Virus record (IMG/VR): IMGVR_UViG_2534681701_000006
Length of the DNA stretch: 38,081 nt
Reading direction: 5' to 3' (one strand)
Origin: a virus
Taxonomy: Duplodnaviria; Heunggongvirae; Uroviricota; Caudoviricetes
Under the pieces are notes generated by a model, which was not told the origin of the DNA, searched no databases, and saw only the letters and a program-made list of their open reading frames with translations. Positions 1 to 38,079 of the stretch are shown here, one piece after another. Made by a program: the position numbers and the translations under genes. Numbering within the stretch: position 1 is the stretch's first letter; each line of letters begins with the position of its first letter.

Positions 1-297
1 ACAACATCTTCGGCATCAAGTGTTATCGGGAGCAGCTCAGGCTACGTTGTTTTCTGTTGTTGAAGGAGGACGTAGTTTTCCTTCGCGCCAGTACTGGCGC
101 CACTTGAACAGCAAATTATCGTTGATCCCATGCTCACGAGCGAGTTGCGCTACGGAGATCTCTGGTCGATGCGAGAGTTCCACCATTTTGATTTTGAACT
201 CAACGGGATAATTAGGGCTTTTTTTACGCACTGCGGTTAATGATTTCATGAATAGCGTCCACCATATTTGGTGTCCACTATTCTCTCAGGAATTTCA
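1..297 (-). mobile_element. IS3-family insertion sequence, partial (window starts inside it); terminus at 297
   Basis: Minus-strand end reads TGAAATTCCTGAGAGAATAGTGGACAC (plus 271..297), which resembles the IS3 left end as I recall it (TGA start, AATAGTGGACAC block); orfA start lies 48 bp inside. Confidence 0.55.
37..249 (-). CDS. IS3-family transposase OrfA (HTH), 70 aa
   Basis: Translation (…VEFKIKMVELSHRPEISVAQLAREHGINDNLLFKWRQYWREGKL…) has the pattern of IS3/IS2-group OrfA HTH proteins; sits directly inside the IS3-like terminus. Confidence 0.55.
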   Translation of the reverse strand: MKSLTAVRKKSPNYPVEFKIKMVELSHRPEISVAQLAREHGINDNLLFKWRQYWREGKLRPPSTTENNVA

Positions 298-475
298 GGA
301 TCTGCCAGACGGTGCTGAGACGACGCTTACGCACGCAGTTTAGTTGTGTGGTATCCATTCCTTTGGTTGAGGCTTTACCGGTCAGCCCCTGTAACATCTG
401 GCGGTAGGTGTCTTCATCCATACCCAGTTCATTACGGGCAATATGGATAAGCTGTATCAGGCGTTTTTTCTGCAT
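278..475 (-). pseudogene. GemA-like (Mu gp16 family) gene, 3' end truncated by the IS3-family insertion at 297/298
   Basis: N-terminus MQKKRLIQLIHIARNELGMDEDTYRQMLQGLTGKAS matches the GemA/DUF1018 N-terminal motif as I recall it; ORF is 65 aa against roughly 180 aa expected, and its last codons and stop lie inside the IS terminus. AGGAGA RBS upstream of the ATG at 475. Confidence 0.5.
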
Positions 476-476
476 A

Positions 477-682
477 TCATCTCCTTTTTTTCAGTCTGTC
501 GGCAACAATGTCGGTTGCAGCTGGCAGGGTGACTGGCCAGAACAACATGACGGCGGTCATGTACAGGATGTAATGCGCGGTGTCGTAGTGCCTGCCATAG
601 CCCAGGGAACGATGAAGTCTTGCGCTGCATGATCCTGCGTACATATACCAGAAAAGAAAACAGACAATGGTTTCAGTAGTCA
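477..682 (-). CDS. small hydrophobic early protein, 68 aa
   Basis: GGAGG RBS before ATG at 682; ATGA start/stop overlap with the upstream gene; hydrophobic translation (MTTETIVCFLFWYMYAG…). The longer 477..839 ORF overlaps a better-supported gene and is rejected. Confidence 0.4.
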
Positions 683-903
683 TTCTGAATACCTCCCCAT
701 TCGATATGAATATTACGGGCAGCAATGACAGGGTCGTTATTCCACCATGCACCTGACATGTATTTTTCAACCTGTTCGCGTCCGGCAATAACACCAATTG
801 TGATCCCCGGCCTGACGTTCTTAAAAAAGGCGCGGGCAAAAAGGTATCTGGCAGATATTCGGCAGGCTTTTAATTTCCGGCTTTTACCTGATAGCGTAAT
901 CAT
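673..903 (-). CDS. hypothetical early protein, 76 aa
   Basis: GGAGG RBS 8 nt before ATG at 903; ATGA overlap with the stop of the 900..1619 gene (translational coupling). Confidence 0.4.
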   Translation of the reverse strand: MITLSGKSRKLKACRISARYLFARAFFKNVRPGITIGVIAGREQVEKYMSGAWWNNDPVIAARNIHIEWGGIQNDY

Positions 904-1619
904 CTGGCCTCCAGTTTCTGTTGTTCCTGCCCACTGACCGGGCGGTGCAGTCTGACGTTCTGCCCTTCACGAAACCCCGCATAGCGCGAGGCGTCGCCAT
1001 TGCGGCTTCTTCCCGGTTTACGCGCCCTGGTGGTTTGCGTCTGCGGGTATTTATGTTCCAGCCACTGCTGCATCAATTCACGCTCATCATCGGTCAGGGC
1101 AAAGGACTGTATTTCACTGATAACGGCCAGCACCCAGCCTTCGGCAAACTGGTCTCCACGGCTGGTGCGGGTGGCGGTTTTTATTCTTTTGTTCTGTGCA
1201 CTGATATACTGCTGACGCGCCTTTTTCAGCTGACGGGCCAGCACTTCCCAGGTGTATGCAGCCAGTGCCGCACGTTCCCGGTTGCCGTAGAACCCCACAG
1301 ACGGATGCGTGCCGGGGTGAATGATGGAGTTAACACCAAATACCTCGCGGATGATGTTCATCAGGCCCAGCATGTAGCGCGGTGGACGGAGACTGCCTGT
1401 CGGCCAGTAGTGACTGATGGTTTCATCAATATCACTCATAGCAATGTCGGAATGTGTGATGCCGTGAACATCCATCAGTTTACGGGCTCGGCGCAGTGCC
1501 AGAGCGGCCTCGTGCGGGTTGCCGGATGCGGCCAGCGCCAGCAACTTTTTCAGTTTCTCAATGTGTTTATTCTGGTCTGTCATTGTTCTGTATCTCCGGT
1601 ATTTTTCTGCCGTTTCCAT
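900..1619 (-). CDS. hypothetical early protein with DUF2786-like N-terminal motif, 239 aa
   Basis: Motif KLLALAASGNPHEAALALRRARKLMDVHGI is typical of DUF2786-type phage proteins; long ORF in the early operon orientation. Confidence 0.55.
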   Translation of the reverse strand: METAEKYRRYRTMTDQNKHIEKLKKLLALAASGNPHEAALALRRARKLMDVHGITHSDIAMSDIDETISHYWPTGSLRPPRYMLGLMNIIREVFGVNSIIHPGTHPSVGFYGNRERAALAAYTWEVLARQLKKARQQYISAQNKRIKTATRTSRGDQFAEGWVLAVISEIQSFALTDDERELMQQWLEHKYPQTQTTRARKPGRSRNGDASRYAGFREGQNVRLHRPVSGQEQQKLEAR

Positions 1620-1795
1620 GCCCGGACAGCGTCGGACAGCTCTTTCAGGCTGTATGCTGCTTTAAGCTTTTCCCATAACCACTGTGTTGTTATGTGCATC
1701 AGCAGGGCAGCCAGGGCTGCCCCCGCACTGAGGCATGTCGCCAGGCCAGTAAGAATCAGTGTCCATGCGGTGATTTCCCTGAGTATGTCAGCCAT
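1580..1795 (-). CDS. small membrane protein, 71 aa
   Basis: Hydrophobic segment (ITAWTLILTGLATCLSAGAALAALLM); same strand as the early operon. Confidence 0.35.
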   Translation of the reverse strand: MADILREITAWTLILTGLATCLSAGAALAALLMHITTQWLWEKLKAAYSLKELSDAVRAWKRQKNTGDTEQ

Positions 1796-1809
1796 TGAAT
1801 GCCTCCCGG

Positions 1810-2106
1810 TTACTCGTTCGTGTAAATCACGCCCAGTCGTGCAGCCAGACGTTCCAGTTTTTTCTGTTTGTGGAAGTCAATCAGCCGGTCCATCCCCTGA
1901 AGGCGCAGTTGCTCTGTCATGATTTCCACGTCTGCCAGCTCTGCCGCGAGGTCACTTTCGCTGCCCTGTCCGTTCAGGTTGCGGGCGGCACTGGCCGCCA
2001 GTTCAGCGGCCTCTTCTGCCAGTTTCAGGGCCTGTGCGTCCGGCCCGAAACGCTGCAGGGCCAGACGGTAGAGGGCGGTGCGGGTGAGTTCGGTGTTTCG
2101 TGTCAT
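1810..2106 (-). CDS. MazG-like nucleotide pyrophosphohydrolase-domain protein, 98 aa
   Basis: Acidic EEAAELA … ELADVEIM motifs in a ~100-aa protein resemble small phage MazG-like proteins. Confidence 0.45.
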   Translation of the reverse strand: MTRNTELTRTALYRLALQRFGPDAQALKLAEEAAELAASAARNLNGQGSESDLAAELADVEIMTEQLRLQGMDRLIDFHKQKKLERLAARLGVIYTNE

Positions 2107-2115
2107 GCCGCGCCC

Positions 2116-2388
2116 TCAGTGCTTCCGGCTGACGGTGATGTGCAGGCCGCCTTCTGCAGTGGTTTCCATCCGGTACGGCACCTCATGCTCTGCCGTGTGG
2201 GTGAGTGTGTTCATCAGTACCTGCAGGGCAGCCTCCTTTCCGTTGGTCGCCACAATGGCCTGTGTGGCCATGCTGATTAGCGCCGTCAGGACGTGCTTCA
2301 CATCGGTGAGGTCGCGGCATTCACACTCGTTGACATAGTGTTCAACAAGAGTTCGGGTGCGCTGTCGTGCTTCCTGTGGGGTAATCAT
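2116..2388 (-). CDS. hypothetical early protein, 90 aa
   Basis: ORF tightly packed in the early operon (4-bp overlap with the upstream gene). Confidence 0.45.
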   Translation of the reverse strand: MITPQEARQRTRTLVEHYVNECECRDLTDVKHVLTALISMATQAIVATNGKEAALQVLMNTLTHTAEHEVPYRMETTAEGGLHITVSRKH

Positions 2389-2579
2389 TGCGCGTCCTCC
2401 CTGTCAGGGCGGGAGAATTCCATGACGGGCACGTCCGCCGAAAAATGCTGGCTGCAGTACGGGCAGACCAGGGTGACACGTACTGCAGGTATGTGATACT
2501 TACCGGACATCACGGCGATGGCGCTGTGAAAACGCAGGGCTGTTATATCCCTCTCGCACTGAATACATTTAAATATCAT
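2385..2579 (-). CDS. zinc-ribbon protein, 64 aa
   Basis: Two CxxC pairs (CIQC … CPYC); GAGGAGAA RBS upstream. Confidence 0.45.
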   Translation of the reverse strand: MIFKCIQCERDITALRFHSAIAVMSGKYHIPAVRVTLVCPYCSQHFSADVPVMEFSRPDREDAQ

Positions 2580-2676
2580 AATTTAATTCTCCTCTGTTTC
2601 CGGCGTGCAGAAGCCCGCGGCGCTGACGCCGGAATAAAAAAGAAAATGTTTTTATTAAATAATTAACGTGGTGTGT

Positions 2677-3207
2677 TTACTGCACATCCTGCTCAAAAGG
2701 AATTATTGAAAAATCCTCAATATCACTTTTTATGGTAATACCGGGAATATTTTTCACAGCCTCTTTTTCATTCAGAATGGCATCTTTATTTATTTCCTCC
2801 TTTACACGAATAAAGCGCTCAAGCCCCAGACGTCTCAGCAGTTCAATGACATTATCCGCCCCGCGAATGCTGACTGACGGCGGACGGTTTCGCCACTGCA
2901 CCTCGCCGGTGGTGAGGTTAGCGAACTTCACCTTCCCGTTGCCGGTCAGTTCATCACGGTGCGCCTCACACCATGTCTGGATACCGGACTGCAGTTCGGC
3001 CATGCGTTTTTTCAGGCTCTCGGTGAGCGGGGCATAACGTGCAGTGATGTCGCCAATGGTGTCATTCATTTCTGTTTCAGCCCTGACCAGTTCACGTTGC
3101 GCGTCACCAAGCAGTCTGATTCCCTCAATGACCTCTTCGCGTGTCCCCGGCACCCAGAGTGCTGCTGCGGCTTTGATACGTTTTGCCCCTTTTGTACTTT
3201 TTGCCAT
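2677..3207 (-). CDS. gam: host-nuclease inhibitor Gam (Mu Gam family), 176 aa
   Basis: Size and translation consistent with Mu Gam; GGAGGAG RBS before the ATG at 3207; located downstream of the transposition genes as in Mu. Confidence 0.75.
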   Translation of the reverse strand: MAKSTKGAKRIKAAAALWVPGTREEVIEGIRLLGDAQRELVRAETEMNDTIGDITARYAPLTESLKKRMAELQSGIQTWCEAHRDELTGNGKVKFANLTTGEVQWRNRPPSVSIRGADNVIELLRRLGLERFIRVKEEINKDAILNEKEAVKNIPGITIKSDIEDFSIIPFEQDVQ

Positions 3208-3234
3208 ATTTTATGACTCCTCCTGTTGTGCTGA

Positions 3235-3504
3235 TTACCACAAAGATTCCGGCCACACGACGCGACAGCCGTGCAGTTCGAAAACGCCCTGACGGAAATG
3301 TCCCCTGTGGTCATGACCGGTATACAGATAACAGGCCTTTCCCTGCTCAAGCATGCGCATGCAATGCGCACTCCGGGAAACGCGGATGACAGGTTTGTTA
3401 CCCCTGATGGTGATGCTTTGTACATCCGTGTTCGTCGCCTTAAGCGCCATAATGGCTGACTGCACTTTGCTGATTTGCTGGTTGATACCTGTGGTGGATT
3501 TCAT
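3235..3504 (-). CDS. hypothetical early protein, 89 aa
   Basis: ORF between the B-like ATPase and Gam, the position of Mu kil/cim-type small genes; no recognisable motif. Confidence 0.45.
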   Translation of the reverse strand: MKSTTGINQQISKVQSAIMALKATNTDVQSITIRGNKPVIRVSRSAHCMRMLEQGKACYLYTGHDHRGHFRQGVFELHGCRVVWPESLW

Positions 3505-3506
3505 TA

Positions 3507-4673
3507 TTAAACCCCTTTGACAACGTCAGCGTTGACCTGTGGAACCCCGATTTCAGCGGCCAGATTCATGGCGGCTATTACCAGGTTACTGACGGCCAGC
3601 GGATACAGCAGGCTGACCATATTTTTACGATGACTTCCCGGATTGCTCAGGCGGGCACGTATGGCATCCACTGCGCTGGCGTCCATAATGTCCGTCAGTT
3701 GTTTACCGGCCCGTTGCAGTTTGAACGTCAGAAACTCTTCAAGGTTATTGTCCAGAGGCAGAAGTTCGACCACCTCACAGCGCTGAACGACTTCACGGAC
3801 TTCCATATTGCGTTCAGACAGTTTTGTCGCCAGTTCCGGCTGGCCAATCAGCACGATGGACAGCAGTTTTTTGAAACCGGACTCCAGCTCAAAAAAGCGT
3901 TTGAGGTGTTTCAGTGTCGGAATGGGCAGACTGTGGGCCTCCTCAATCACCAGAACGTGGCTGAACCCCGCCTGGCTGCTGTCTTTCAGGACGCGATGCA
4001 ACTGGCGAAAGCGGGCGTCCTGACTGCGTCTGATGCTTTCCAGTGGTGCGATGGTACTGATAATGGCTTCGGCAATCGCTGCTGCCTTCAGGGTTTTCCC
4101 TTTCACATCGTTGTCTTCCATAGCGATGATGTATGGCTCGATAACAATTACCGGCGCATTCTCGCGGTTGATACGTTCAGTCAGGTCGCGGCGCAGCGTG
4201 GATTTACCCGCACCGGACTCACCGATGACGGCCATAAACCCACCATGACGGGCTGTCTGGTACAACGCCTCACGCACGTAGCGAATATCCGGGGTGGTGA
4301 ACACATCATCAGAACCCTGCATGGCTTCGTCGGCGAACGGGTCACGGAAAAGACCAAACGCTTTTTTGGTTGCTGGAAATAACACCTGTTTTTTGAGTAA
4401 CATATTCTCTTCCTCACTGAGGCTCGTTTTATCTGTGGTACCCGCTGTACGGGGCGTGGCCGCGCCCTGTACAGCATCAAAACTCTTCGTTGTATCAATC
4501 CCCTGACTTTCCAGCCAGGACGCAAGACGCCGGCGCACTTCTCCGGGGCTGGTGCGGGGCCACGCGTTATGATTCACAATCTGGGCCAGCGTGGCCTCAG
4601 AAACATCGACAGCTCTCGCCACCACCGCCTGTGGAATACGGGCCTCTTTCAGTTGCTGCTTCAGTACCAGCAT
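3507..4673 (-). CDS. transposition ATPase, MuB-like AAA+ protein
   Basis: Walker A GESGAGKST and Walker B-like HVLVIEEAH; N-terminal HTH-like segment; GGAGGG RBS directly after the transposase stop, ATG at 4673 (ORF track's 4712 start overlaps the transposase). Confidence 0.85.
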   Translation of the reverse strand: MLVLKQQLKEARIPQAVVARAVDVSEATLAQIVNHNAWPRTSPGEVRRRLASWLESQGIDTTKSFDAVQGAATPRTAGTTDKTSLSEEENMLLKKQVLFPATKKAFGLFRDPFADEAMQGSDDVFTTPDIRYVREALYQTARHGGFMAVIGESGAGKSTLRRDLTERINRENAPVIVIEPYIIAMEDNDVKGKTLKAAAIAEAIISTIAPLESIRRSQDARFRQLHRVLKDSSQAGFSHVLVIEEAHSLPIPTLKHLKRFFELESGFKKLLSIVLIGQPELATKLSERNMEVREVVQRCEVVELLPLDNNLEEFLTFKLQRAGKQLTDIMDASAVDAIRARLSNPGSHRKNMVSLLYPLAVSNLVIAAMNLAAEIGVPQVNADVVKGV

Positions 4674-4683
4674 GTTTCCCTCC

Positions 4684-6453
4684 TCAGTTGCCGTTAACAA
4701 TGCTGATAACACTGCTGCGGGCCGGTGTGGTCAGCGTGGCCATGACTTCATCCAGTGCGGCTTCCGGTACGCCGTCCGGGTACTGTGCCGTTAACTGGCG
4801 GTAATGTTCCGGCGTCCAGGTAAGGCCGTCGGCGCTGAACTTATCGCGCAGGGCTTTCGCGGCCTCCACATGAGTCATGGGACGTTGTTCAGTGCGCGGC
4901 CCGCGTACGTCAGAGGCCTGACCACGCTTCGGCATATAGGCCGGAAGTGTGGTGTCGTCGATATGTTTATACGGGTCAAGCCGCCCGCCGAACGGCAGCG
5001 CCTTCGCCTTGCGTGCGGCGGCTGCATCTGCGGCGTTGTCTGTACCGGTAACCAGCGCTTCGGTTTCTTTTGCCGCCATCTGTGCCGGGGTTTCCGGCAG
5101 GGCTTTGTAACTTTCGCCAAATACCGCCGCGCCTTCAGCAAAGCCAAACTTGTTCTTTCTGACCTCTTCGACCAGGAAGAACGTCTCGTGGCCGTCCTCA
5201 CCGGTCAGAACCACCTGTGCCACATCGCTGCGCCATGGGTTACGGGTAATCATCAGTTTTTCACCAACCAGTACGCCCGGTACCGTTGATACGTCAAATT
5301 CAGTGCCCCGGAACGAGACACGAAGTTTTGGCGTGACTTTGCGGAGTTCTGGTGCCGCCACAGCCAGTTCACGACATACCTCAACGGAAGGCGCTTTTTT
5401 CAGCTGCTCAGCAGTAATCTTCAGCCAGATATCCGTGCGGGTTTTACCGTGGCGGCTGTGAACAGCCGTGGCGTTAAAGTGGCTGCGCCATTTCGCGGCC
5501 AGCGCGTTGAGTTCTTCCAGACTGTGAACCGGCCGGAACTTCAGACCCGGCTCCAGCTTGCGTTCGATAATGTCACGCGCCTTTTCCACCTGTCCGGTGG
5601 CGCGGGCGTTATGCGGCTTGTGCGCTATCAGGTCGATGCCCAGTGAGCGGCACATGTTTTTCGTCATACCCGCGGTGTTTGCCGAGCCGGGGTCGAGATA
5701 GAGTATTTTCGGCACGCCGTGCAGCACGTCTGCGCCGCCACGCTCCTGCATGGCGTTGATAAGCACAGAACACAGGTTCTCACCTGATTCCGCGCCCGTC
5801 ACATACTCAACGTAAATCCAGCCGCTGGCATGGTCGGTAATCTCGTAACTCCACACGCGGTCACTGGCGATACGGGCAAGGTTAGCGGGCTTGTTCTTGT
5901 AGAACTTCGCGCTGTCCATCACCTGCAGCCCTTTATGTCCATTGCTCAGGTAGTAAAGCGTGCAGAGTGAGGCGTCAATCTGCCAGACATGATTGGGATG
6001 CAGACTGGCCACTTCGGTATGTGGTGCAGGGGCATCCAGTTGTTCCGGGTGCAGGCCATAGTTACGCAGAGCACGGCTGATGGCATCTTCAGACAACGGG
6101 AAAAACTCACCGGTGGTTTCATCTGTTCTGCCTGCGGTGATAAAGCCGTTAGCCCGCAGGGTTTCCACTGCATCTGCGATGGAATAGAGACGCTTACCGT
6201 TCTTGCGGGTGGCCTCACGCAGTGTGGCAGATATCAGCGCGGCTTCGTCGCGGGTCAGGGCGCTGCGCCCGGCATCGGCGCGTTTTTTGCGTTTATCAGT
6301 CACAGATACCTCCTTCAGCCTGCGCAGCAGAGTGGCGCGGGACATGCCAAGTTCAGCACAGGCAGCGTCGTATATTGCACCGCGTTTACCATGCCCCGCG
6401 TCACGTGCCGCGCGGGCTGTTTCAACCAGTTTTTCAGTCAGTGCCGGGGTCAT
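4684..6453 (-). CDS. DDE transposase, MuA/TnsB-type (Mu transposase family), 589 aa
   Basis: Integrase-core-like region (HVWQIDAS…) and size; immediately upstream of the AAA+ ATPase partner, as in Mu A-B. Confidence 0.85.
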   Translation of the reverse strand: MTPALTEKLVETARAARDAGHGKRGAIYDAACAELGMSRATLLRRLKEVSVTDKRKKRADAGRSALTRDEAALISATLREATRKNGKRLYSIADAVETLRANGFITAGRTDETTGEFFPLSEDAISRALRNYGLHPEQLDAPAPHTEVASLHPNHVWQIDASLCTLYYLSNGHKGLQVMDSAKFYKNKPANLARIASDRVWSYEITDHASGWIYVEYVTGAESGENLCSVLINAMQERGGADVLHGVPKILYLDPGSANTAGMTKNMCRSLGIDLIAHKPHNARATGQVEKARDIIERKLEPGLKFRPVHSLEELNALAAKWRSHFNATAVHSRHGKTRTDIWLKITAEQLKKAPSVEVCRELAVAAPELRKVTPKLRVSFRGTEFDVSTVPGVLVGEKLMITRNPWRSDVAQVVLTGEDGHETFFLVEEVRKNKFGFAEGAAVFGESYKALPETPAQMAAKETEALVTGTDNAADAAAARKAKALPFGGRLDPYKHIDDTTLPAYMPKRGQASDVRGPRTEQRPMTHVEAAKALRDKFSADGLTWTPEHYRQLTAQYPDGVPEAALDEVMATLTTPARSSVISIVNGN

Positions 6454-6468
6454 AGCTTGTCTTCCCTG

Positions 6469-6786
6469 TTATCCGATTCTGGCGGCAATTTTTCTGGCGA
6501 GGTCGCACAGTGTTTCGCCATCGCAGGTTTTCACCACGGTATTTACCGGTTGCGGTGCAACTACCGGGCGTAATGCTGACTGATTCTGCAGACGTCTTAT
6601 CTGCTGCATCAGCATCACCTCCATCGTCAGTACAAACGGGTGCGTCTCCTGTGCGGGTACGCAGATTTCACCGGAAGGGGTCACCACGCGGAAACCCTGC
6701 ACCATCTCCGGCAGCAGATTACACAGTGCGTGCCCCAGTGCCTCCGGGCTGTCCATCAGGGTATTTTGTGTGTTATTCGTATTCAT
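6469..6786 (-). CDS. hypothetical protein, 105 aa
   Basis: ORF between the regulators and the transposase; abuts the next gene. Confidence 0.45.
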   Translation of the reverse strand: MNTNNTQNTLMDSPEALGHALCNLLPEMVQGFRVVTPSGEICVPAQETHPFVLTMEVMLMQQIRRLQNQSALRPVVAPQPVNTVVKTCDGETLCDLARKIAARIG

Positions 6787-7706
6787 TACTGCATATCCTC
6801 CGGTCGGTTGATTTCAGGTTCCGGTTCGGTCAGCCAGGCGGGGGCATCGTTACCCGATGGAGCGGCCTCAAGGTCAAACGTCTCACGTAATGCATGAACA
6901 CTGCGTTCAATCTGGCAGACCAGACCGGCCATGAAATCTCTGGGGGTATCGATCATGTTTTTGGTGCAGTATTCACACAGGGTCTCAAAAACACTGGACA
7001 GCCGGACGGCGATAGCCGATTCGGCCTCAACCGCTAATGCCGTCACTTCCGCCCGCAATTTTTTCAGTTCTTCGTCTGGCGGCGGAGGTTGCAGGCGCGA
7101 TTTCTTCTCCAGTTTTGTGGCCAGTTCGTTGATTTTTTCGTCCTTTCCGGCAAGCACCTGTTGCTGAGCTGCGTTGGTTTCGCGCGCTTCACGCAGGGCG
7201 GCCTTCAGTTCGCGGCTGGTCATGCGATCAATATCATCAAGCGTTGCACCGGCGACGGTTCCACCATCAGCTAATGCGTCGAGTTCTTCGTCATCCAGAA
7301 CCATCAGTTCATATAACTTGGTTTTTCCCAAAACGCTCAGCGCTGAGCGTTTTGGCTGTTCATCTCCATTGCCGAGAAATTTCACGCTGGCCTGCATCAT
7401 GCGACGAGCTACCTGTGGTGCTAATCCGAGGTCGTTTTCCAGAATATTTGTGAAATCACCATGCGGTTCATTTTCTTTTAAGATGATCAGCCGCTTACCC
7501 GCTTCCAACATAGATTCAGCACTCTGCGCCATATAAAAACGTGCTTCGTGAACGATGCGTTCACGTTCATAAGGCAGTCCATCACCAAACTGCTGCATGA
7601 TCTCCATGCGATGCTGTGTCATGGCATTCAGGCTGACGTTGAGATCATCCGACAGCGGTACATCGGCGTTCAGTTCAGTGTTAATCGGTGATTTGGTACG
7701 TCCCAT
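6786..7706 (-). CDS. hypothetical protein with central coiled-coil, 306 aa
   Basis: Long ORF with charged, coiled-coil-like central region; family not recognised with certainty (possibly DUF3102-like). Confidence 0.55.
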   Translation of the reverse strand: MGRTKSPINTELNADVPLSDDLNVSLNAMTQHRMEIMQQFGDGLPYERERIVHEARFYMAQSAESMLEAGKRLIILKENEPHGDFTNILENDLGLAPQVARRMMQASVKFLGNGDEQPKRSALSVLGKTKLYELMVLDDEELDALADGGTVAGATLDDIDRMTSRELKAALREARETNAAQQQVLAGKDEKINELATKLEKKSRLQPPPPDEELKKLRAEVTALAVEAESAIAVRLSSVFETLCEYCTKNMIDTPRDFMAGLVCQIERSVHALRETFDLEAAPSGNDAPAWLTEPEPEINRPEDMQ

Positions 7707-7716
7707 TGATTACTCC

Positions 7717-8031
7717 TTACAAACGACTACCTGAAATGACACGTTGGTTAATTTCGTTAATACGATCCTGTGCACGTGCCATCTCGTTACTGTGGGCCAT
7801 GGCGATCTGCAGTAACTGGATGCCCGGTGCAAAACGTCCGTTCTCCAGTTTCAGAGCCAGCCCTTCTTCAATGAGGGTGTTGAGTGCCCGGTTGATGTTT
7901 GCCGGTGACTCGTGCAGTGCTGTCGCCAGTTCACCGTTAGAAATACCGTTCAGGGCATGACCGCGCAGCGCTTTGAGTACCCGGAGGATGCGACTGCCGG
8001 AGCTTGAAACATTCGTCTTACTCATCTGCAT
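7717..8031 (-). CDS. putative winged-helix DNA-binding regulator, 104 aa
   Basis: HTH-like segment ISNGELATALHESPANINRALNTLIEEGLAL; AGAGG RBS; start may be the ATG at 8025. Confidence 0.5.
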   Translation of the reverse strand: MQMSKTNVSSSGSRILRVLKALRGHALNGISNGELATALHESPANINRALNTLIEEGLALKLENGRFAPGIQLLQIAMAHSNEMARAQDRINEINQRVISGSRL

Positions 8032-8077
8032 ACCTCTTTTGCGATATGTGATAACCTTTTACAAAGACTCAAAATAT

Positions 8078-8266
8078 TTAGGCCGCCTGAGCTGTTGATT
8101 TCAGTCCCAACTTCACGGCGATTTCATGGGATTTACCGTAACGGGCTTTGGTCTGCCCGTTGAGAACGCGGTATACCTCATTGCGGTTGTAGCCGTTTTC
8201 TTCTGCCCAGCGGGTGAAAGTGATCCCGCGCTGGCGGAAGAGAGCTTTGACTTGTTCTGCAGTCAT
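8078..8266 (-). CDS. Cro/Ner-like small HTH regulator, 62 aa
   Basis: Small basic HTH protein, first gene of the early operon, divergent from the repressor; the position of Mu ner. Confidence 0.6.
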   Translation of the reverse strand: MTAEQVKALFRQRGITFTRWAEENGYNRNEVYRVLNGQTKARYGKSHEIAVKLGLKSTAQAA

Positions 8267-8319
8267 CGTTGTCTCCTTTGTTGATGCAATGATGTTTGCC
8301 TTATATGTGTTAGATTATT

Positions 8320-8335
8320 GCTCATAATTATGAGC
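8320..8335. promoter_or_regulatory. perfect 16-bp palindrome GCTCATAATTATGAGC in the divergent control region (candidate operator)
   Basis: Read directly; lies between divergently transcribed regulator genes, about 25 bp upstream of the repressor start. Confidence 0.45.
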
Positions 8336-8359
8336 ATATCAAGATAGAGATTCACTTTT

Positions 8360-8716
8360 ATGAGCAAAGATATAGGAGAGCGCGTTATTTCTGTGAGGAA
8401 GAAAGCAGGGTTGAACCAGAGAGAATTTGCAGCTCGTTTAGGTATTTCTAATGGTGGTATCAGTCAGATTGAAAATGGAAAGGCGATGCCTGGAGGGGAG
8501 TTTCTGTTAAAGATGCATCAAGAGTTTAATGTTGATGTAAATTGGTTGCTCACTGGAATGAGCACAGATGGTATGACTAGAAACCAGAATCAAATTTCCC
8601 CAGAAAAACAAAAACTAATAGATACTTTTGACGACATGACACCAGACCAACAACGCTCATTTCTTGAGATTGGGCGATTCTATACTCAGCCAAAACCAGG
8701 AAAAATCGCAGGCTGA
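8360..8716 (+). CDS. XRE-family (Cro/CI-type HTH) repressor, 118 aa
   Basis: N-terminal HTH signature (LNQREFAARLGISNGGISQIENGK); divergent from the early operon. Confidence 0.75.
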   Translation: MSKDIGERVISVRKKAGLNQREFAARLGISNGGISQIENGKAMPGGEFLLKMHQEFNVDVNWLLTGMSTDGMTRNQNQISPEKQKLIDTFDDMTPDQQRSFLEIGRFYTQPKPGKIAG

Positions 8717-8801
8717 TACTGACCCGGACACAAAGGACAGGTGGTTGATCTGGATGCTTTCAGAAAACATCGCCAGTGACATAGTGGAAGTTGTTTGGTT
8801 T

Positions 8802-8834
8802 ACCGGAAAGCATTGTGCTTTCCGGTTTTGTTTC
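8802..8834 (+). terminator. rho-independent terminator downstream of the repressor gene
   Basis: Stem ACCGGAAAGC / GCTTTCCGGT with loop ATTGT, followed by TTTTGTTTC. Confidence 0.5.
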
Positions 8835-9597
8835 AGAAGTTGCAGATTAGCAGTTCACGGCGCGGCGTGGGTTTACCCGCCAGACTGTAGTTGATATTCA
8901 CTGTCTGTATGTTCAGTCCAGTGAACACCTCGCGCATCTGCGGGATGTCGTTCACCGAAATTATCATTTTTCCTCTGATGCACCGGGCCAGCTCTGCCAG
9001 CCGCGAGTAGTTCCCTTCAGGAAAATCCACACCATAGCCTTCCGTACCCAGGTACGGTGGGTCGCAGTAGAACAGCGTGTGCGGACGATCATAACGCTCA
9101 ATGCACTGTTGCCAGTCCATGTGTTCTATGACTGTTCTGGAAAGCCGCAGGTGTGCCGCTGACAGTTCTTCTTCAATACGTAGCAGGTTGAAGCGTGGCG
9201 GGGATGTGGTGGAGGTACCGAAGCTGTGCTCTGCCACCTTGCCGCCAAACGCCTGCTTCTGAAGGTAGTAGAACCGTGCCGCACGCTGGATATCCGTCAG
9301 TGTTTCTTCCGGGGTGATCTGCAGCCATTTGTAGATCTGACGGCTGACCAGCGCCCATTTGAACTGGCGGACAAATTCTTCCAGGTGATGCTTTACCACC
9401 CGGTACAGATTCACCAGTTCACCGTTGATATCATTGATGACTTCGATCTTGCCGGGTGTCTTAAGAAAATAGAGCGCTGCTGCCCCACAAAACGGCTCCA
9501 CATAACATTCATGCGCCGGAAACAGCGGCAGAATGTGTTTTGCAAGGCGGCGTTTGCCACCAATCCACGGCACGATGGGTAATGTCTGCATTTTCAT
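8833..9597 (-). CDS. DNA N6-adenine methyltransferase, Dam/D12 class (orphan, no cognate endonuclease seen)
   Basis: PWIGGKRRL (Dam motif-I-like) near the N-terminus and catalytic DPPY; start most likely the ATG at 9597 rather than 9687. Confidence 0.8.
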   Translation of the reverse strand: MKMQTLPIVPWIGGKRRLAKHILPLFPAHECYVEPFCGAAALYFLKTPGKIEVINDINGELVNLYRVVKHHLEEFVRQFKWALVSRQIYKWLQITPEETLTDIQRAARFYYLQKQAFGGKVAEHSFGTSTTSPPRFNLLRIEEELSAAHLRLSRTVIEHMDWQQCIERYDRPHTLFYCDPPYLGTEGYGVDFPEGNYSRLAELARCIRGKMIISVNDIPQMREVFTGLNIQTVNINYSLAGKPTPRRELLICNF

Positions 9598-9787
9598 AAT
9601 CTGTAAGCCTTTTACAATTATTAAAAAATATGGCAGTCTGGTCAGGTCTCGCGAGACTGACTGAACCTTGGTCGGCTCACAGCGCATTCCTGTGGGGCGA
9701 TGACCAGCCCGGCTTTCGGGTGCCGGGCTGGTCGTTCTTTCATGATGCGGCAGGGATGGCGGGATTTCTGTTAATGTGGTTTAGGGA

Positions 9788-10003
9788 TTATCCGGGGCGA
9801 TTTTCTGACCTTATCCGGTCCAGGGCATAAGTAATACCTTCTGCAAAAACAGAAGTATCAAACTGCTTTTGTATTCCCTGAAAATGAAAAGCGGCACGAC
9901 AGACACTCAGTTCTCCGCGGTATAACCGGATAATATCTTCCAGAACATTGTTCACTGCTTCAGCACGGCGCTGATGTTCTGTTAACGTTAATCGGGGATT
10001 CAT
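9788..10003 (-). CDS. hypothetical protein, 71 aa
   Basis: ORF only; start overlaps the start of the divergent 10002..10406 ORF. Confidence 0.3.
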   Translation of the reverse strand: MNPRLTLTEHQRRAEAVNNVLEDIIRLYRGELSVCRAAFHFQGIQKQFDTSVFAEGITYALDRIRSENRPG

Positions 10004-10381
10004 GATGCACTCCTTAAATGATGATTTTTATGTACTCACCGGCAAAATATTCTGCCGATTACTGAACACGCATCCGGCACCTCAGGTTTTGATTTATTCT
10101 GGTTTTTTCGATATCCCGGACCAGGTTGATCACGACCAGAAAAAGTGCCGGTGTTTTATTGATACGCTGATATGGCTTCGGGATAACAGCTATATTCGTT
10201 ACTCTCAGTTGCTGGCTGTGGGAGCGGCTGATGTCGTCCTCACGGAAAAAACGCTCTGTCTGCTCAATGCCATGCCGACCTTTCTGCAGCCCCGGCCCGT
10301 ACCATTTAAAGAGTCACTTCTGGATGCAGTAAAAACCGGTGAAAATGCAGTCATCGCTGAATGCGTATCCCGGATTATGCG

Positions 10382-10406
<25 letters not shown>
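10002..10406 (+). CDS. hypothetical protein, 134 aa, lower-GC orphan
   Basis: ORF on the opposite strand to its neighbours, visibly more AT-rich than flanking phage DNA; convergent 25-bp overlap with the P-loop gene. Confidence 0.35.
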
Positions 10407-13100
<2,694 letters not shown>

Positions 13101-13199
13101 TTATCCTGCACATCCCGTATCCCCGGCTCTCTTAACGCGCTTTAAAATCCTTCGCGCCCTGTATTTGTGATGCTGTCTCCACCAGATAAGGAGACACAC

Positions 13200-13550
13200 A
13201 TGAAAAACCTGAAAAAATTCATTCCCCCTGTTAAAAAACCTCGCCTCAGCGGCTGGCTGCTGACCTCAGTGCTGTTGCTGGGCACCATCGCTCTGGTCTC
13301 ACCACAGCAGCTGCCTGTTGTGATCTACAAGCTGGCACTCATCACGCTGGCAGCAGTGCTGGGTTACTGGCTTGACCGTTCGCTCTTCCCCAAAGCCCGT
13401 CCCGGTCAGTACCTGAAACATGACGACAGGCTGATGGCTGAAGGGCGTTTCCCGGTACAGACCGGCCTTCACCTGGTGTTTTCTGCTGCGTTAATCCGCC
13501 GTGCACTGATTGTTGCAGCGGTCTGCCTGGCTGTTGCGATGGGGCTTTAA
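13200..13550 (+). CDS. membrane protein with three predicted TM segments, putative holin
   Basis: AAGGAGA RBS 5 nt before ATG at 13200; three hydrophobic helices; first gene of the lysis cassette. Confidence 0.45.
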   Translation: MKNLKKFIPPVKKPRLSGWLLTSVLLLGTIALVSPQQLPVVIYKLALITLAAVLGYWLDRSLFPKARPGQYLKHDDRLMAEGRFPVQTGLHLVFSAALIRRALIVAAVCLAVAMGL

Positions 13551-13552
13551 TC

Positions 13553-14293
13553 ATGAACTGGCCGCAGATCACCTGGATTGTATGCATGTCCCTGAAACTG
13601 GCTTTCGAAGCCTTTCGGGTCTTCATCAGAACCGAACGCCTGTCAGTCCGCGCCGGGACCTTTCTGGTTCATATGGCATGGGTATTCTTTGTCGCAATGT
13701 TGCTCTGGTGTGGCGGCTTTTTCAGCCAGGCATGCGCAGCACAACCTCCGCAGGCTGCGCTGCAGTATCGCGATGATGTGATCCGTAATGCCCGGCTTGA
13801 ATGGGGACTGTCTGCGCCGGTGGCCGATTTCGCCGCGCAACTGCATCAGGAAAGCGGCTGGCGACCTGATGCGATCTCGCCGGCTGGCGCTCAGGGACTG
13901 GCGCAGTTCATGCCTGCCACTGCCGACTGGATAAGCCAGTTGATACCGATGCTGAGCAGTCGTGAGCCGTTTAATCCGGCATGGGCTATCCGGGCGCTGG
14001 TCAGCTATGACCGCTGGCTGTGGCAGCGTGTCAGCGCCGCCAGTGACTGCGAGCGTATGGCCATGACACTGTCGGGCTATAACGGTGGTCTGGGCTGGGT
14101 ACAACGGGACAGGCGGCTTGCATCACAGAAAGGTCTGGACAGCACCCGCTGGTTCGGACATGTCGCCACGGTGAATGCCGGACGCAATGCGGCCAGCTGG
14201 CGGGAGAACCGCCATTATCCGCAGCGCATCCTGCACGAACTGGCACCGCGATATCTCACATGGGGAGGCAGCAGTTGTGTGGCATCTGGTTAA
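13553..14293 (+). CDS. endolysin, lytic transglycosylase (SLT domain), possible signal-anchor N-terminus
   Basis: SLT signature (…QLHQESGW … AQGLAQFMPAT …); hydrophobic stretch AWVFFVAMLLWCGGFF before the catalytic domain. Confidence 0.7.
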   Translation: MNWPQITWIVCMSLKLAFEAFRVFIRTERLSVRAGTFLVHMAWVFFVAMLLWCGGFFSQACAAQPPQAALQYRDDVIRNARLEWGLSAPVADFAAQLHQESGWRPDAISPAGAQGLAQFMPATADWISQLIPMLSSREPFNPAWAIRALVSYDRWLWQRVSAASDCERMAMTLSGYNGGLGWVQRDRRLASQKGLDSTRWFGHVATVNAGRNAASWRENRHYPQRILHELAPRYLTWGGSSCVASG

Positions 14294-27078: not shown

Positions 27079-30030
27079 ATGTCGGGACAGTTTTCAGTCG
27101 GCGTTGTTATCGGCGGGATGATTGGCAGCACATTCCGTTCTGCAATGAGCGGTACCCGCCGTGCGCTTGATTCCCTGAGCGATACCTCACGCCGCCTGCA
27201 GGAACGTCAGAACGCTTTAACCCGTGCAACAGAACGTTATGGTCAACTGGGTTCTTCCCGGATGCAGCATCTCAACAGCGAGCTGCTGCGGGTAAGCCGC
27301 ACCATGGAGCAAATTGAGCGCCAGCAGCGCCGTCTGTCAGCGGCATCCGCTACCAGTGATGCGCTGAAAGCTAACCGCATGGCGCTGTATGGTCAGGGGA
27401 TTGAAGCGTATGGCATGGCACAGACTGTTTATCATACGGTTTCCCCTGCCGTTCAGCAGTCCATGTCTTTTCAGGACAAAATGATTGATATGTCGATCAC
27501 CGCAAAATATGACAATAAAACGCGGGATGCACTTGCCGGACAGATAAAAGGCTGGGCGCTTAAATACAATCAGTATCAGGATGAGCTGCAGGAGGCGGTG
27601 GGTTCACTCATCAGCGACAATATTGATAATGTGTCAGATATCGGTTTTCTGATGCCGGATATTGCCCGCGCGGCAACGGCAACACGCACGTCTGCTCAGG
27701 ACTGGGCAAAAGTGGCCGCAGTCTGGCAAAACTCCCTGAAAGGTGCGGCCAGAGATTTTGGTGCCGTTCAGAATATTATGGCTTATGCCGGTGACCAGGG
27801 GTCATTTGAAATCCCGGATCAGGTCAAGTGGATGCAGTCCCTGGCCCCAATGATGGCGGGTATTGCCAGTGGAAAAGAGGCTGTTGCTGAAATCGGGGCC
27901 AGTCTCCAGATAGCAAAAATCGGTGCAGGTTCCACCGACGAAGCAGCCAATAATTTTAAAAACTTTCTTACCAAAATTTTTGCCCGCGATACTCAGAAAC
28001 AGTTTGCTGATCTGGGTATTGATTTGCAGGGATCTATTGCGAGTTATAAGGCTGCGGGGATCTCTCCGATTGAAGGGATGTTGAGTGTTATAGAACGTTA
28101 CCTCAATGCCAAAAGCCCCGAAGCGCTGGCCGGCTTCAAATCCGCCATGAAAATAAAGAATGATACGGCAAGAGATGAGGCACTTCAGGCTCTGGCGAAA
28201 AACTTTGGTCTGGGTGATATGTTCGCGGATATGCAGGTCATGGCATTTATCCGCCCGATGCTGGCCAACATGGACAGATATCGAGAGATCCGTGCCGGTG
28301 CTCTCAGGGCTGCGGATAACGATTTGCTTGCCAGTGCTTACGATCAGCGACTGAAATCTCCCCTTGAAGCCACTAAAACACTTATGGTCAGCAGTCGCGA
28401 TCTGGCAATTACGCTGGGCGATCAATTAGCTCCATCTTTTATTTCTTTGACTCAGGAACTGCTTCCACTCATTCAGGGGGCAAAACACTGGGTAGCGACT
28501 CACCCGCAATTTGTCAGTGGGGCTTTTAAGCTCATCAGTGCGCTCCTTGCGATTAAGATAGCGACTGTTGGTCTCAAACTGGGGCTGAATCTCCTTATTT
28601 CCCCCTTTGTAAGTGTCTGGAAAAATGCTGTTTTACTCCGGACCAACTGGCATCGACTGACTACCGCACTCGGAGAAGGTGGCAAATTACGCTGGCTTGT
28701 CACTGGATTCAGCCGACTGACCAGCGGAGGACTGAAACTCAGCAAAGTTCTGGCGGGCAGCCTCGTTCGCGGTTTTATGAGCGCTGCACGTGCCGTTCTC
28801 TGGATTGGGCGAGCGCTGATGATGAATCCCATCGGTCTCGTTATCACCGCTGTCGCGGCAGCAGCTTACCTTATCTACCGCAACTGGGGGGCTGTCAGTG
28901 GTTGGTTTAAACAGCGCTGGGCTGACATTCAGGAAGCCTTTAACGGCGGCATTGTGGGAACTGGTAAGTTGCTGATTAACTGGTCGCCGGCAGGCCTGCT
29001 CTATAAAGCCTTTGCGGCTGCGCTGAAATATTTCGGCGTTGCTCTGCCGGCAAAGTTCACCGACTTCGGTGGCCATCTTATCGACGGTCTGATTAACGGT
29101 ATCAAAAACAAATGGGGGTCGCTCAAATCCAGTGTAACCGGAATGGGTGACAGCATCAGTAGCTGGTTTAAACAGCGCTGGGCTGACATTCAGGAAGCCT
29201 TTAACGGCGGCATTGTGGGAACTGGTAAGTTGCTGATTAACTGGTCGCCGGCAGGCCTGCTCTATAAAGCCTTTGCGGCTGCGCTGAAATATTTCGGCGT
29301 TACTCTGCCGGCAAAGTTCACCGACTTCGGTGGCCATCTTATCGACGGTCTGATTAACGGTATCAAAAACAAATGGGAGTCGCTCAAATCCAGTGTAACC
29401 GGAATGGGCGACAGCATCAGTGGCTGGTTCAGCGAAAAGCTGGGCATTCATTCGCCGAGCCGCGTGTTTATGGGCTTTGGTGACAATATCGCGCAGGGGG
29501 CCGCCATTGGCCTGCAGCGGACCACTCCGCTTGCAGCTCTGGCCGGGCAGCGAATGGCCAGTGAACTGCTCCCCAAAATGCCCGTGAGCATTCAGGGGCC
29601 AGAAATACGGGATAACACTTCAGGTGTTCGCTTCAGTATGCCGTTGCCCGATATCAATGGGTTTATGTCGTCTGCTAAAAATGCGATCGGAGCCGTAATC
29701 AATAGTTTGTCTTCCATGCCCGCTATTCCGCTCTCCACCCGGGCATCGATTTTACCAGGGCAACGTCTGGCAAATGAGATGACACCGGATGTTCCCCGTA
29801 TCCCCTCGCCTGAAATCCTGGCTGCCGGATATTCAGGCCGTGGTGCAGCTGCAACCGGCGGTGGAACGTCTGGTGGTATCCAGGTCAGCTTTAATCCTCA
29901 GTTTTTCCTCAATGGCAGGGAAACCACAGCGCCTGCAGGACTGACTGGTGCCCTGAATATGAGTCTGCATGAGCTGGAAAAAATGCTGGAGCGTCTGCTT
30001 GCTCAGAAACAACGTAAGGAGTACCGCTGA
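27079..30030 (+). CDS. tail tape measure protein, 983 aa, containing an internal tandem duplication
   Basis: Largest ORF in the tail module; GGAGG RBS; Ala/Gly-rich hydrophobic central region. Confidence 0.85.
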   Translation: MSGQFSVGVVIGGMIGSTFRSAMSGTRRALDSLSDTSRRLQERQNALTRATERYGQLGSSRMQHLNSELLRVSRTMEQIERQQRRLSAASATSDALKANRMALYGQGIEAYGMAQTVYHTVSPAVQQSMSFQDKMIDMSITAKYDNKTRDALAGQIKGWALKYNQYQDELQEAVGSLISDNIDNVSDIGFLMPDIARAATATRTSAQDWAKVAAVWQNSLKGAARDFGAVQNIMAYAGDQGSFEIPDQVKWMQSLAPMMAGIASGKEAVAEIGASLQIAKIGAGSTDEAANNFKNFLTKIFARDTQKQFADLGIDLQGSIASYKAAGISPIEGMLSVIERYLNAKSPEALAGFKSAMKIKNDTARDEALQALAKNFGLGDMFADMQVMAFIRPMLANMDRYREIRAGALRAADNDLLASAYDQRLKSPLEATKTLMVSSRDLAITLGDQLAPSFISLTQELLPLIQGAKHWVATHPQFVSGAFKLISALLAIKIATVGLKLGLNLLISPFVSVWKNAVLLRTNWHRLTTALGEGGKLRWLVTGFSRLTSGGLKLSKVLAGSLVRGFMSAARAVLWIGRALMMNPIGLVITAVAAAAYLIYRNWGAVSGWFKQRWADIQEAFNGGIVGTGKLLINWSPAGLLYKAFAAALKYFGVALPAKFTDFGGHLIDGLINGIKNKWGSLKSSVTGMGDSISSWFKQRWADIQEAFNGGIVGTGKLLINWSPAGLLYKAFAAALKYFGVTLPAKFTDFGGHLIDGLINGIKNKWESLKSSVTGMGDSISGWFSEKLGIHSPSRVFMGFGDNIAQGAAIGLQRTTPLAALAGQRMASELLPKMPVSIQGPEIRDNTSGVRFSMPLPDINGFMSSAKNAIGAVINSLSSMPAIPLSTRASILPGQRLANEMTPDVPRIPSPEILAAGYSGRGAAATGGGTSGGIQVSFNPQFFLNGRETTAPAGLTGALNMSLHELEKMLERLLAQKQRKEYR
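28903..29424. repeat. near-perfect tandem duplication, 2 x 261 bp (87 codons), inside the tape measure gene
   Basis: TGGTTTAAACAGCGCTGGGCTGACATTCAGG… recurs at 28903 and 29164 with only a few mismatches across the unit. Confidence 0.9.
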
Positions 30031-34932: not shown

Positions 34933-36224
34933 ATGGGAAACCTGAATGAAACAGAAAAGTGGGAAGAAAATATCTATCAACTGGAGACATCAGATCCGGT
35001 TCTGGGTGGTGCAGACGGGATATCAAATCGAGCCCCCGGCAACTGGCAAACAGGACGAAATGGCTGAAGAAGAAAACGGAGGAAGCCGCACAGTCACTGG
35101 CTGAACACGTACGTTCCCGTAACCACCCGGACGCGACACTGACAGCTAAGGGGTTCACCCAACTGAGCAGTGCCACCAACAGCACCTCTGAAACGCTGGC
35201 CGCCACACCAAAAGCGGTCAAGGCTGCATACGACCTGGCAGCCGGCAAGGCGCCTGCCAGCCACACTCACCCGTGGAGTCAGATAACGGGAGTGCCTGCG
35301 GCTTCACTGACGGCAAAAGGCACCGTACAACTGAGCAGCGCCACGGACAGTCAATCAGAAACTGAGGCTGCCACGCCGAAGGCGGTCAAGGCTGCATACG
35401 ACCTTGCAGCCGGCAAGGCGCCCGTCAGCCACACTCACCCGTGGAGTCAGATAACGGGAGTGCCTGCTGCCTCGCTGACGGCAAAAGGCACCGTACAACT
35501 GAGCAGTGCCATCAACAGCACGTCTGAAATACTGGCCGCCACACCGAAAGCGGTCAAGGCTGCATACGATCTGGCAAACGGAAAACAACCGGCAGATGCC
35601 ACGCTCACTGCTCTGGCAGGACTTGCCACTGCAGCAGATCGGTTGCCTTATTTTACCGGAGCAGACCGCGCAGCGCTGGCAACCCTTACAGCTATTGGTC
35701 GCGCTATTATCGCTAAGGGCAGTATAAAAGATGTCCTCAATTACCTTGGTTTGGGGGAAGGCTCTGCATTGCCTGTTGGTGTACCGGTTCCATGGCCCAC
35801 CGCCACACCGCCAGCAGGCTGGTTAAAGTGCGACGGGCGCGCCTTTACAAAAGAACAATATCCTGTTCTGGCCAGAGTCTACCCGACCCTCCGTCTTCCC
35901 GATTTACGCGGTGAGTTTATCCGTGGATGGGACGACGGGCGCAAGATTGACGAGGGGCGTAAGTTGCTTTCATGGCAGAAAGGTACACTGGTCGGCGGTC
36001 ATGACGATAACGATTCTTCGCTTGATATCTCGTACATGAGTAACGGAAATAATATTGACTATGGCGGCGATAAGGTGTTTGCGGGGAATTACCGTAGCGA
36101 TTATTTGTGGTACGTAATTCTGGGTGGAACAAACAGTCGCGCAAAAGCCGAATTAAACGGAGCATTCTTTAACATAACCCGCCCCCGCAATATCGCGTTT
36201 AACTATATCGTGAGGGCGGCGTGA
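34933..36224 (+). CDS. tail fibre protein with an apparent frameshift in a C5 tract (35034..35038) and phage tail-fibre repeats
   Basis: ATG at 34933 encodes MGNLNETEKWEENIYQLETSDPVLGGADGISNRAP, which resembles tail-fibre N-termini as I recall them, then hits a stop; the long ORF continues in another frame from 34959. Three ~56-aa repeats; conserved C-terminal NYIVRA. Confidence 0.7.
35745..35944. repeat. left arm of ~200-bp perfect inverted repeat flanking the invertible tail-fibre cassette
   Basis: Identical in reverse complement to 37166..37362; invertase half-site-like sequence (GGTTTGGGGGAA) at its outer edge. Confidence 0.8.
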
Positions 36225-36230
36225 TACCGT

Positions 36231-36845
36231 TCAACTGGCAAGTGCCAGTGGCGCTTCCGGCCAGCTGATTTCAGGTGCCGTGCTGATATCCAGTGCGTTC
36301 AGCTCGTCGATATAATCCAGCACGGCGTTCAGTTTTGCCGTTTCTTCTGGTGTCAGACTGCGACCAGCACGCAGTTTGAGGTTGATAAGATCGACTGACG
36401 CCATCGCCTGTTTCACCCGTTGCTGGCGTTGCTGTCTGGCAACCTCCAGTTCTGCGGCTCGCTGCCGTTCAGTATCGGTTACCCACGCCTCACCGTTCCA
36501 GGTATCCCATGGCGTGGCTGGCTGTTTTGTGGTGGTGTCCGCCGGGTAATCACCCGGTTGGGTAATCAGAACAGGGTTACCGTTCTCCGTGCTGTATACC
36601 GTCTCGCCGCGGTGATCAGGCACATGCTCCCACCCGTTCAGCGTGGCAGTCCGGCAAACCACGTAACCCGAAATTGCCTCCGGCGGTGCATCGGCGCACG
36701 AATGTGCCGGAGTACCCACCCCAAGGGCGAGATACTCCACAGAGGATGAGGTGTATTCCCGGGTTTCCTCGTCATAGTGATATACAGTGATATCGCCCGC
36801 TACAGTGGCGATACCGTTTTCATCCAGAACTGCAGTGTTACTCAT
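36231..36845 (-). CDS. tail fibre assembly protein (Tfa, Mu U-like), 204 aa
   Basis: Tfa-like size and sequence; immediately downstream of the alternative fibre C-terminus on the minus strand. Confidence 0.7.
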   Translation of the reverse strand: MSNTAVLDENGIATVAGDITVYHYDEETREYTSSSVEYLALGVGTPAHSCADAPPEAISGYVVCRTATLNGWEHVPDHRGETVYSTENGNPVLITQPGDYPADTTTKQPATPWDTWNGEAWVTDTERQRAAELEVARQQRQQRVKQAMASVDLINLKLRAGRSLTPEETAKLNAVLDYIDELNALDISTAPEISWPEAPLALAS

Positions 36846-37357: not shown

Positions 37358-37362
37358 ACCAA
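37166..37362. repeat. right arm of the inverted repeat flanking the invertible tail-fibre cassette
   Basis: Reverse complement is identical to 35745..35944. Confidence 0.8.
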
Positions 37363-37428
37363 CGTTTATCTCTCAAATCCTCCCCACATTATCTCAGTAC
37401 TTTAACCACTCAAAAGGGAGTATTTTTA

Positions 37429-38032: not shown

Positions 38033-38079
38033 TGCCATTTATCGCACAAGATAGAGTGCATTTATCGCGCGGCGCATCA
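38033..38079. other. putative prophage right end: two direct repeats (CATTTATCGC) ending in …GCGCATCA, resembling Mu attR transposase-binding sites
   Basis: GCCATTTATCGCACA and GCATTTATCGCGCGG about 25 bp apart; resembles the Mu right-end R sites as I recall them, and Mu-type ends terminate in CA. Confidence 0.3.

Follow-up and report, generated by a model that had tools for sequence, protein, structure and literature searches.

In a Mu-like prophage of Escherichia coli P0298942.1, gemA is split beside an ISEc22 end at a draft contig edge

The draft genome of E. coli P0298942.1 (GCA_000356165.2) contains a Mu-like prophage on contig AQET01000047.1, 38081 bp in length, which was analysed in its entirety and is referred to as the window. 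At the left edge of the window, an insertion sequence (IS) abuts a truncated gemA gene; the rest of gemA, the Mor-type middle regulator and the left phage end are out of sight. Is this a simple insertion, or does the IS mark the breakpoint of a deletion or rearrangement that cost the prophage its regulator? The initial annotation held that the window alone is unable to separate the two, and we agree.

The prophage and its intact relatives

The left edge of AQET01000047.1 falls within ISEc22, which is present in multiple copies, and its right edge lies two bases past the right terminus of the phage. The window ends inside ISEc22 because the short-read assembler failed to span this multi-copy repeat. 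Outside the interrupted gene, the following prophage features were located:

477–6453, minus strand: early operon upstream of gemA, from ORF calls and domain matches, all transcribed toward the IS
900–1619, minus strand: DUF2786/DUF7168 protein, from domain search
2677–3207, minus strand: Gam (Pfam Phage_Mu_Gam, 139.5 bits)
3507–4712, minus strand: MuB-like ATPase, from domain search (AAA_22)
4684–6453, minus strand: DDE transposase, from domain search (rve)
37429–38001, plus strand: Gin/Hin-type recombinase, which follows the tail-fibre region
38058–38079, plus strand: right end of the prophage, ...GCATTTATCGCGCGGCGCATCA; the same end borders host DNA in ECKH-100 and FDAARGOS_1267

The early operon also contains several small ORFs, and in the window it ends in a 65-residue ORF (278–475, minus strand). 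The set expected of a transposable phage is present, with rve, AAA_22, Phage_Mu_Gam, GemA and Mor in one early operon aimed at the phage end. An early operon directed toward the phage end is the layout of the B3/BcepMu type (PMC8705779). The proposal that gemA and mor come last in this operon is borne out by the intact relatives, in which gp16 and Mor are followed by ∼190 bp and then by the phage end.

Intact relatives were identified by megablast of window 1–2500 against 5426 complete E. coli genomes; 459 of these genomes carry intact copies, at 99.6–100% identity over window 331–2500. The intact prophage of ECKH-100 is 99.5% identical over window 331–6441. In ECKH-100, FDAARGOS_1267 and the ST131 strains EC958 and JJ1886, gp16 (149 residues) is uninterrupted, Mor is present, and the prophage occupies other chromosomal sites. 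Three insertion sites of the phage were found, beside yibQ, beside paeA and within rihA. The prophage of the P0298942 lineage sits in rihA, where a 48-residue IU_nuc_hydro fragment (3280–3426 of sibling locus L009) adjoins gltLKJI; such differing host sites (rihA versus yibQ or paeA) are as expected for near-random transposition. The FDAARGOS_1267 copy is flanked by a 6-bp target duplication, AATAAT. The flanks of the ECKH-100 copy differ by one G (GTTGGGC versus GTTGGC), compatible with the same duplication length.

The late region is colinear with that of the intact relative at ∼99% identity, and the ORFs for terminase, portal, capsid, sheath and tape-measure proteins are all full-length; the prophage therefore looks otherwise complete. 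The tape-measure ORF (window 27079–30030) encodes 983 residues, compared to 896 in ECKH-100, and the BLAST segments between the two overlap, offset by 261 nt, suggesting that an internal stretch was duplicated or deleted in frame. Between the two arms lies an immunity/accessory region (window ∼6.4–13.7 kb), which is mosaic relative to ECKH-100; window ∼6440–13700 shows either 80–94% identity or no match, with other gene content. A D12-class DNA methyltransferase was called in this region of the sibling loci. The tail-fibre region (35160–38001) contains internally repeated and inverted matches to the relative, and judged by this pattern it looks like an invertible host-range switch in the style of the Mu G segment. 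At the right end, the contig finishes two bases (CC) beyond the phage terminus ...GCGCGGCGCATCA (window 38058–38081). The left flank of the P0298942 lineage predicts CTTACG at the right, and only the first of the two terminal bases fits.

The break in gemA and the identity of the element

The features at the left edge of the window are as follows:

1–330, minus strand: left end of ISEc22, 330 bp (2454 bp when complete), with the left inverted repeat GTAAGCGTCGTCTCAGCACC... running from 330 leftwards
1–249, minus strand: 5' part of ISEc22 tnpA (134 residues when complete), cut by the contig end; ORF 37–249, HTH_Tnp_1 at 47 bits
278–475, minus strand: chimeric ORF of 65 residues, 48 from GemA and 17 (RKRRLSTVWQILKFLRE) from the left end of the IS; stop at 278–280
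331–338, minus strand: left copy of the target-site duplication CTGCGTGC, the gemA bases that abut the IS
331–475, minus strand: 5' fragment of gemA/gp16, codons 1–48 plus the first base of codon 49

That an IS truncates a GemA-like ORF at this edge had been proposed from the sequence, and it is confirmed by the ISEc22 left end and by the partial Pfam GemA match. The position of the break requires correction; it had been put at codon ∼59, and the actual cut lies after codon 48 plus one base, with the boundary between IS and phage at 330/331. Counted from the ATG, 145 bases are identical to those of intact gp16 (WP_001170114.1, 149 residues), after which the window reads GTAAGCGTCGTCTC...; on the minus strand, the inverted repeat of the IS (GTAAGCG...) begins at window 330. 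In every one of the 459 genomes, the homology to the intact prophage starts at window 331.

Against the Pfam GemA profile (PF06252), the ORF at 278–475 (minus strand) scores 31.6 bits, with residues 19–48 matching profile positions 1–30 of 119 only. Intact gp16 matches positions 1–119 with 140 bits, and the separated tail matches positions 34–119 with 92 bits. Judged by these profile matches, the gemA of the window is a split gene and not an intact member of the GemA family. The exact 65-residue fusion protein was found on 14–16 contigs, which belong to sibling assemblies, one metagenome and one Logan assembly. The left junction between gemA and ISEc22 is also present in Logan run SRR18173990 (locus L005) and in ENA metagenome ERZ28646590 (locus L006); since the run is an unrelated one, the interrupted allele exists beyond the P0298942 isolate series. 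Megablast of window 1–600 found no junction-spanning record among the 5426 complete E. coli genomes, and an exact 30-mer across the junction gave 0 matches in a contig collection with one genome per species.

To which family does the element belong? In complete E. coli genomes, thousands of IS copies align to window 1–330 by megablast with 97–99.4% identity, and these copies carry the annotation 'IS66-like element accessory protein TnpA'. One extra base aside, window 1–330 is identical to the left end of the 2454-bp ISEc22. The complete IS from a sibling contig is identical at 2454 of 2454 bases to copies labelled by PGAP as 'IS66-like element ISEc22 family transposase'; on complete copies, the PGAP labels are ISEc22 family transposase, TnpA and TnpB (IS66-like element).

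Among the ISEc22 genes, the window itself contains only the 5' part of tnpA. The complete element at sibling locus L009 has tnpA, tnpB and tnpC. Its TnpA contains HTH_Tnp_1, TnpB matches TnpB_IS66 with 131 bits, and TnpC matches DDE_Tnp_IS66 with 354.5 bits, together with zf-IS66, LZ and C-terminal domains. The NCBIfam models of IS66 TnpA (ISRel24 type), TnpB and transposase all pass their cut-offs with the L009 proteins. The element ends GTAAGCG...CGCTTAC; its terminal inverted repeats, GTAAGCGTCGTCTCAGCACCGT on the left and GTAAGCGTGCAGCAAGAACCGT on the right (reverse complement), are imperfect and begin GTAAGCG.

IS66-family elements are characterized by the gene set tnpA-tnpB-tnpC, by a TnpC transposase of DDE_Tnp_IS66 type and by an 8-bp target-site duplication; their terminal inverted repeats are imperfect and start with GTAAGCG. 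In gene set, domains, ends and 8-bp duplication, the ISEc22 described here agrees with the IS66 family (IS66, IS679, ISEc8). Compared to the named ISEc22, there is no difference of substance; the copy in the window is partial (330 bp) and has one extra base in tnpA.

The initial annotation had placed the element in the IS3 family. IS3 elements encode OrfA and OrfB, produce an rve-type DDE transposase via frameshifting, have TG...CA ends and generate 3–4-bp duplications. This assignment cannot be maintained, as the IS66 models pass and the NCBIfam IS3 transposase model gives 27.4 bits against a cut-off of 160. An IS3 identity was also rejected on its own terms, with the rve domain absent from all proteins of the IS, no TG...CA ends and a duplication of 8 bp. 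IS3 OrfA and the N-terminus of ISEc22 TnpA both carry the HTH_Tnp_1 (PF01527) helix-turn-helix, and the earlier call probably stemmed from this generic domain.

The extra base lies at window 43 (T on the plus strand, A in the reading direction of tnpA) and is absent from four sibling contigs and from ISEc22 elsewhere. It shifts the frame of tnpA, giving a stop at 37–39 and a 70-residue product, in this record only. Owing to its position 43 bases from the contig end and its presence in a single record, it is probably an assembly error. In sibling assembly GCA_000356465.2 (loci L010 and L031), tnpB was called at 111 residues and tnpC was split into 366 and 143 residues; these calls suggest indel errors typical of drafts, not genuine decay of the IS.

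The right junction, mor and the left phage end

We modelled a simple IS66-type insertion as the right repeat, the 8-bp duplicate CTGCGTGC and the remaining gemA, and derived the resulting ORFs. The predicted gemA-tail ORFs are 102 residues (GTG start) and 98 residues (ATG start) in size; both proteins have exact matches in the public collection, from the same strain series as the 65-residue fusion. In a homologue search with intact gp16, an IS-adjacent C-terminal gemA fragment was not among the best 120 matches.

The reciprocal junction is present in the window's own assembly. Contig AQET01000024.1 begins inside ISEc22 tnpC and continues with the right IS end (...CACGCTTAC), the 8-bp duplicate (CTGCGTGC) and the resumed gemA (TGGAATCC...); read further on both sides, the junction is ...TTGCTGCACGCTTAC, CTGCGTGC and TGGAATCCATGAAAAAG.... 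In gene terms, the order is the 3' end of tnpC (...GCACGCTTAC), CTGCGTGC, gemA from codon 49 onwards (TGGAATCCATG...) and mor. The gemA reading restarts at the exact base of the interruption. The duplication CTGCGTGC is thus found on either side of the IS, at window 331–338 and at 251–258 of locus L029. Strain 510016 carries an independent copy of ISEc22, likewise flanked by an 8-bp duplication, TCTTTACG.

The junctions are uniform; the 20 loci fetched for the right junction share one sequence there, and the 11 left junctions, of which 10 come from fetched loci and one from the window, are likewise identical. The tail-side contigs contain a partial or complete ISEc22, the gemA tail, Mor (129 residues), the 48-residue rihA fragment and gltLKJI. 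In sibling GCA_000357405.2, a contig coming from the phage side crosses the complete element; a second starts 5 bp inside the left repeat and runs through the whole IS, gemA', mor, the phage end and rihA'-gltLKJI. On the latter, the left phage end reads ...CTCAAGTCTAATCA, followed by host DNA.

The mor gene lies directly after gemA, outside the window. On AQET01000024.1 it was called at 129 residues; 119 residues could be read, all identical to those of the sibling Mor. The 129-residue protein matches the Mor family (PF08765) with 147.8 bits over profile positions 1–107 of 107, above the cut-off. Six nucleotides upstream of its ATG, mor has its own Shine-Dalgarno sequence, GGGAG. A search of the genome for a Mor/C-family activator, as the initial annotation had advised, thus leads to this intact mor. 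A phmmer search with Mor against the window ORFs of at least 40 residues, which cover 37.7 kb of phage, found no second Mor/C paralogue (best E 0.76); on this result, mor is probably the sole late-transcription activator of the prophage.

These observations bear on the explanation with which the locus was first read, namely that the IS is a deletion or rearrangement breakpoint, that the gemA remainder, mor and the left end are gone and that the late switch is impossible. Nothing is visible beyond the IS in the window, and the phmmer search detected no second Mor/C gene there. However, the same assembly has the exact continuation of gemA, the right IS end, the matching 8-bp duplication and mor, and the siblings keep the phage end and the host flank; a deletion would leave neither a matching duplication nor base-perfect continuity. 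We therefore regard a deletion as highly improbable. The rest of gemA, mor and the left phage end are absent from the window, as had been stated, but they are present on AQET01000024.1, and the middle regulator was not lost. It had been set out beforehand that the remainder of gemA beyond a complete IS with a target duplication would speak for a simple insertion, and this is what was found. As for the completeness of the IS, a sibling assembly shows it complete, whereas the window's own assembly lacks one continuous IS.

Could the junction instead be an assembly chimera, with IS reads misjoined to the phage and gemA truly intact? The ends of these draft contigs are noisy, as seen from the extra base at window 43 and from odd terminal bases. 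However, the same left junction is present in 14 NCBI assemblies, one Logan run and one ENA metagenome, and the reciprocal right junction with the expected 8-bp duplication is present in 16 NCBI assemblies. A chimera would not generate a reciprocal junction with a duplication, and this explanation is scarcely credible.

A third explanation accepts a simple insertion as the first step, after which homologous recombination with another ISEc22 copy would have inverted or translocated DNA and parted the gemA head and the late genes from the gemA tail and mor; the prophage would then be physically split, although each junction has the look of a simple insertion. The genome contains several ISEc22 copies, hence the contig breaks, and no assembly reaches unique sequence at both ends of the IS. 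Moreover, two sibling contigs that cross the IS from the side of the gemA head end TC and G after the right repeat, where CT is expected (locus L002 at 12600–12601 and L031 at 5298). The TC and G ends match the first flanking bases of ISEc22 copies in strain 510016, the chromosomal copy inside a tape-measure gene (TCTTTACG) and a plasmid copy (GTTTTTAT), which suggests from flank sequence that the P0298942 lineage holds ISEc22 at the same sites as strain 510016. We read these bases as assembler bleed from other ISEc22 copies, which would explain the contig breaks too; they could also mark a recombinant junction. On the other hand, a difference of one or two bases carries very little weight, two siblings conflict (TC versus G) as contig-end noise would, and both GCA_000357405.2 contigs cross the full IS with identical sequence. 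We consider that such a recombination is unlikely to have taken place. In each assembly, the left and right junctions fall on different contigs, and their linkage through one IS copy is therefore inferred rather than read.

Taken together, these observations make it very probable that a complete ISEc22 transposed simply into gemA of the Mu-like prophage in the P0298942 lineage, with nothing deleted. The regulator and the phage end only seem to be lost, owing to a break in the draft assembly.

Predicted consequences and comparison with known systems

With a simple insertion, the following course of events is proposed. ISEc22 (2454 bp; tnpA, tnpB and tnpC) would have transposed into gemA (gp16) and duplicated the 8-bp target CTGCGTGC. 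The gene would thereby have been split into a 48-codon head, fused to 17 IS-encoded codons and present in the window, and a 101-codon tail; this tail, mor, the ∼190-bp left phage end and the disrupted host rihA would have ended up on another contig. The predicted outcome is an inactivated GemA and a mor gene located ∼2.5 kb further from the early promoter. With 89 of the 119 Pfam profile positions cut off from the head, GemA is almost certainly inactive.

Transcription of mor would depend on read-through of the IS, which is plausible, probably at a lowered level, because the IS genes are co-directional with the early operon and no terminator is predicted. No intrinsic terminator-like site was predicted on the early-operon strand within the IS. 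A promoter and terminator scan of the IS and the gemA'-mor region gave nothing above shuffle expectation, a result that carries little weight in either direction. In Mu, the middle promoter is activated by Mor and drives production of C, which in turn switches on the late promoters. As mor is intact and read-through is plausible though probably reduced, the early-to-late switch of this prophage may be weakened rather than abolished.

The insertion could also be a selected state, in which the loss of GemA and the 2.45 kb placed before mor damp or lock the switch, or in which a costly GemA activity was removed. If so, the lysogen would retain immunity and its late genes and escape lethal induction; alternatively, the lost GemA activity would have been costly to the host or would have sensitised DNA to a defence system. 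GemA occurs in nearly all transposable phages, yet it has no characterised function (PMC8705779, PMC9239132); for a homologue from phage JBD30, licensing of Gabija restriction and sensitisation of DNA to Gabija have been reported (PMC12407980). With a later Logan run and a metagenome among its sources, the interrupted allele persists outside the original isolate series. Selection of this kind seems to us a distant prospect. The inducibility of a gemA-null, possibly mor-polar prophage bears on the function of GemA (PMC8705779).

For annotation, the P0298942.1 prophage is best recorded as full-length and Mu-like, with one ISEc22 in gemA and at least two contigs needed to hold it; it should not be listed as a remnant that lacks Mor and its left end. 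Where sequence is lacking at the border of a contig next to an IS, the usual cause is a repeat that collapsed during short-read assembly; such gaps can be closed if the reciprocal junction is predicted and then sought in the same assembly.

The IS is catalogued, the insertion is of textbook form and the prophage is common in E. coli. Like in phage Mu, gemA (PF06252) and an overlapping mor (PF08765) close the early operon, and a DDE transposase, a MuB-like ATPase and Gam are encoded upstream of gemA. Different from Mu, mor here precedes ∼190 bp and the phage terminus, with no middle operon after it. The two phages also differ in their own target duplication, which is 5 bp in Mu and apparently 6 bp in the phage described here.
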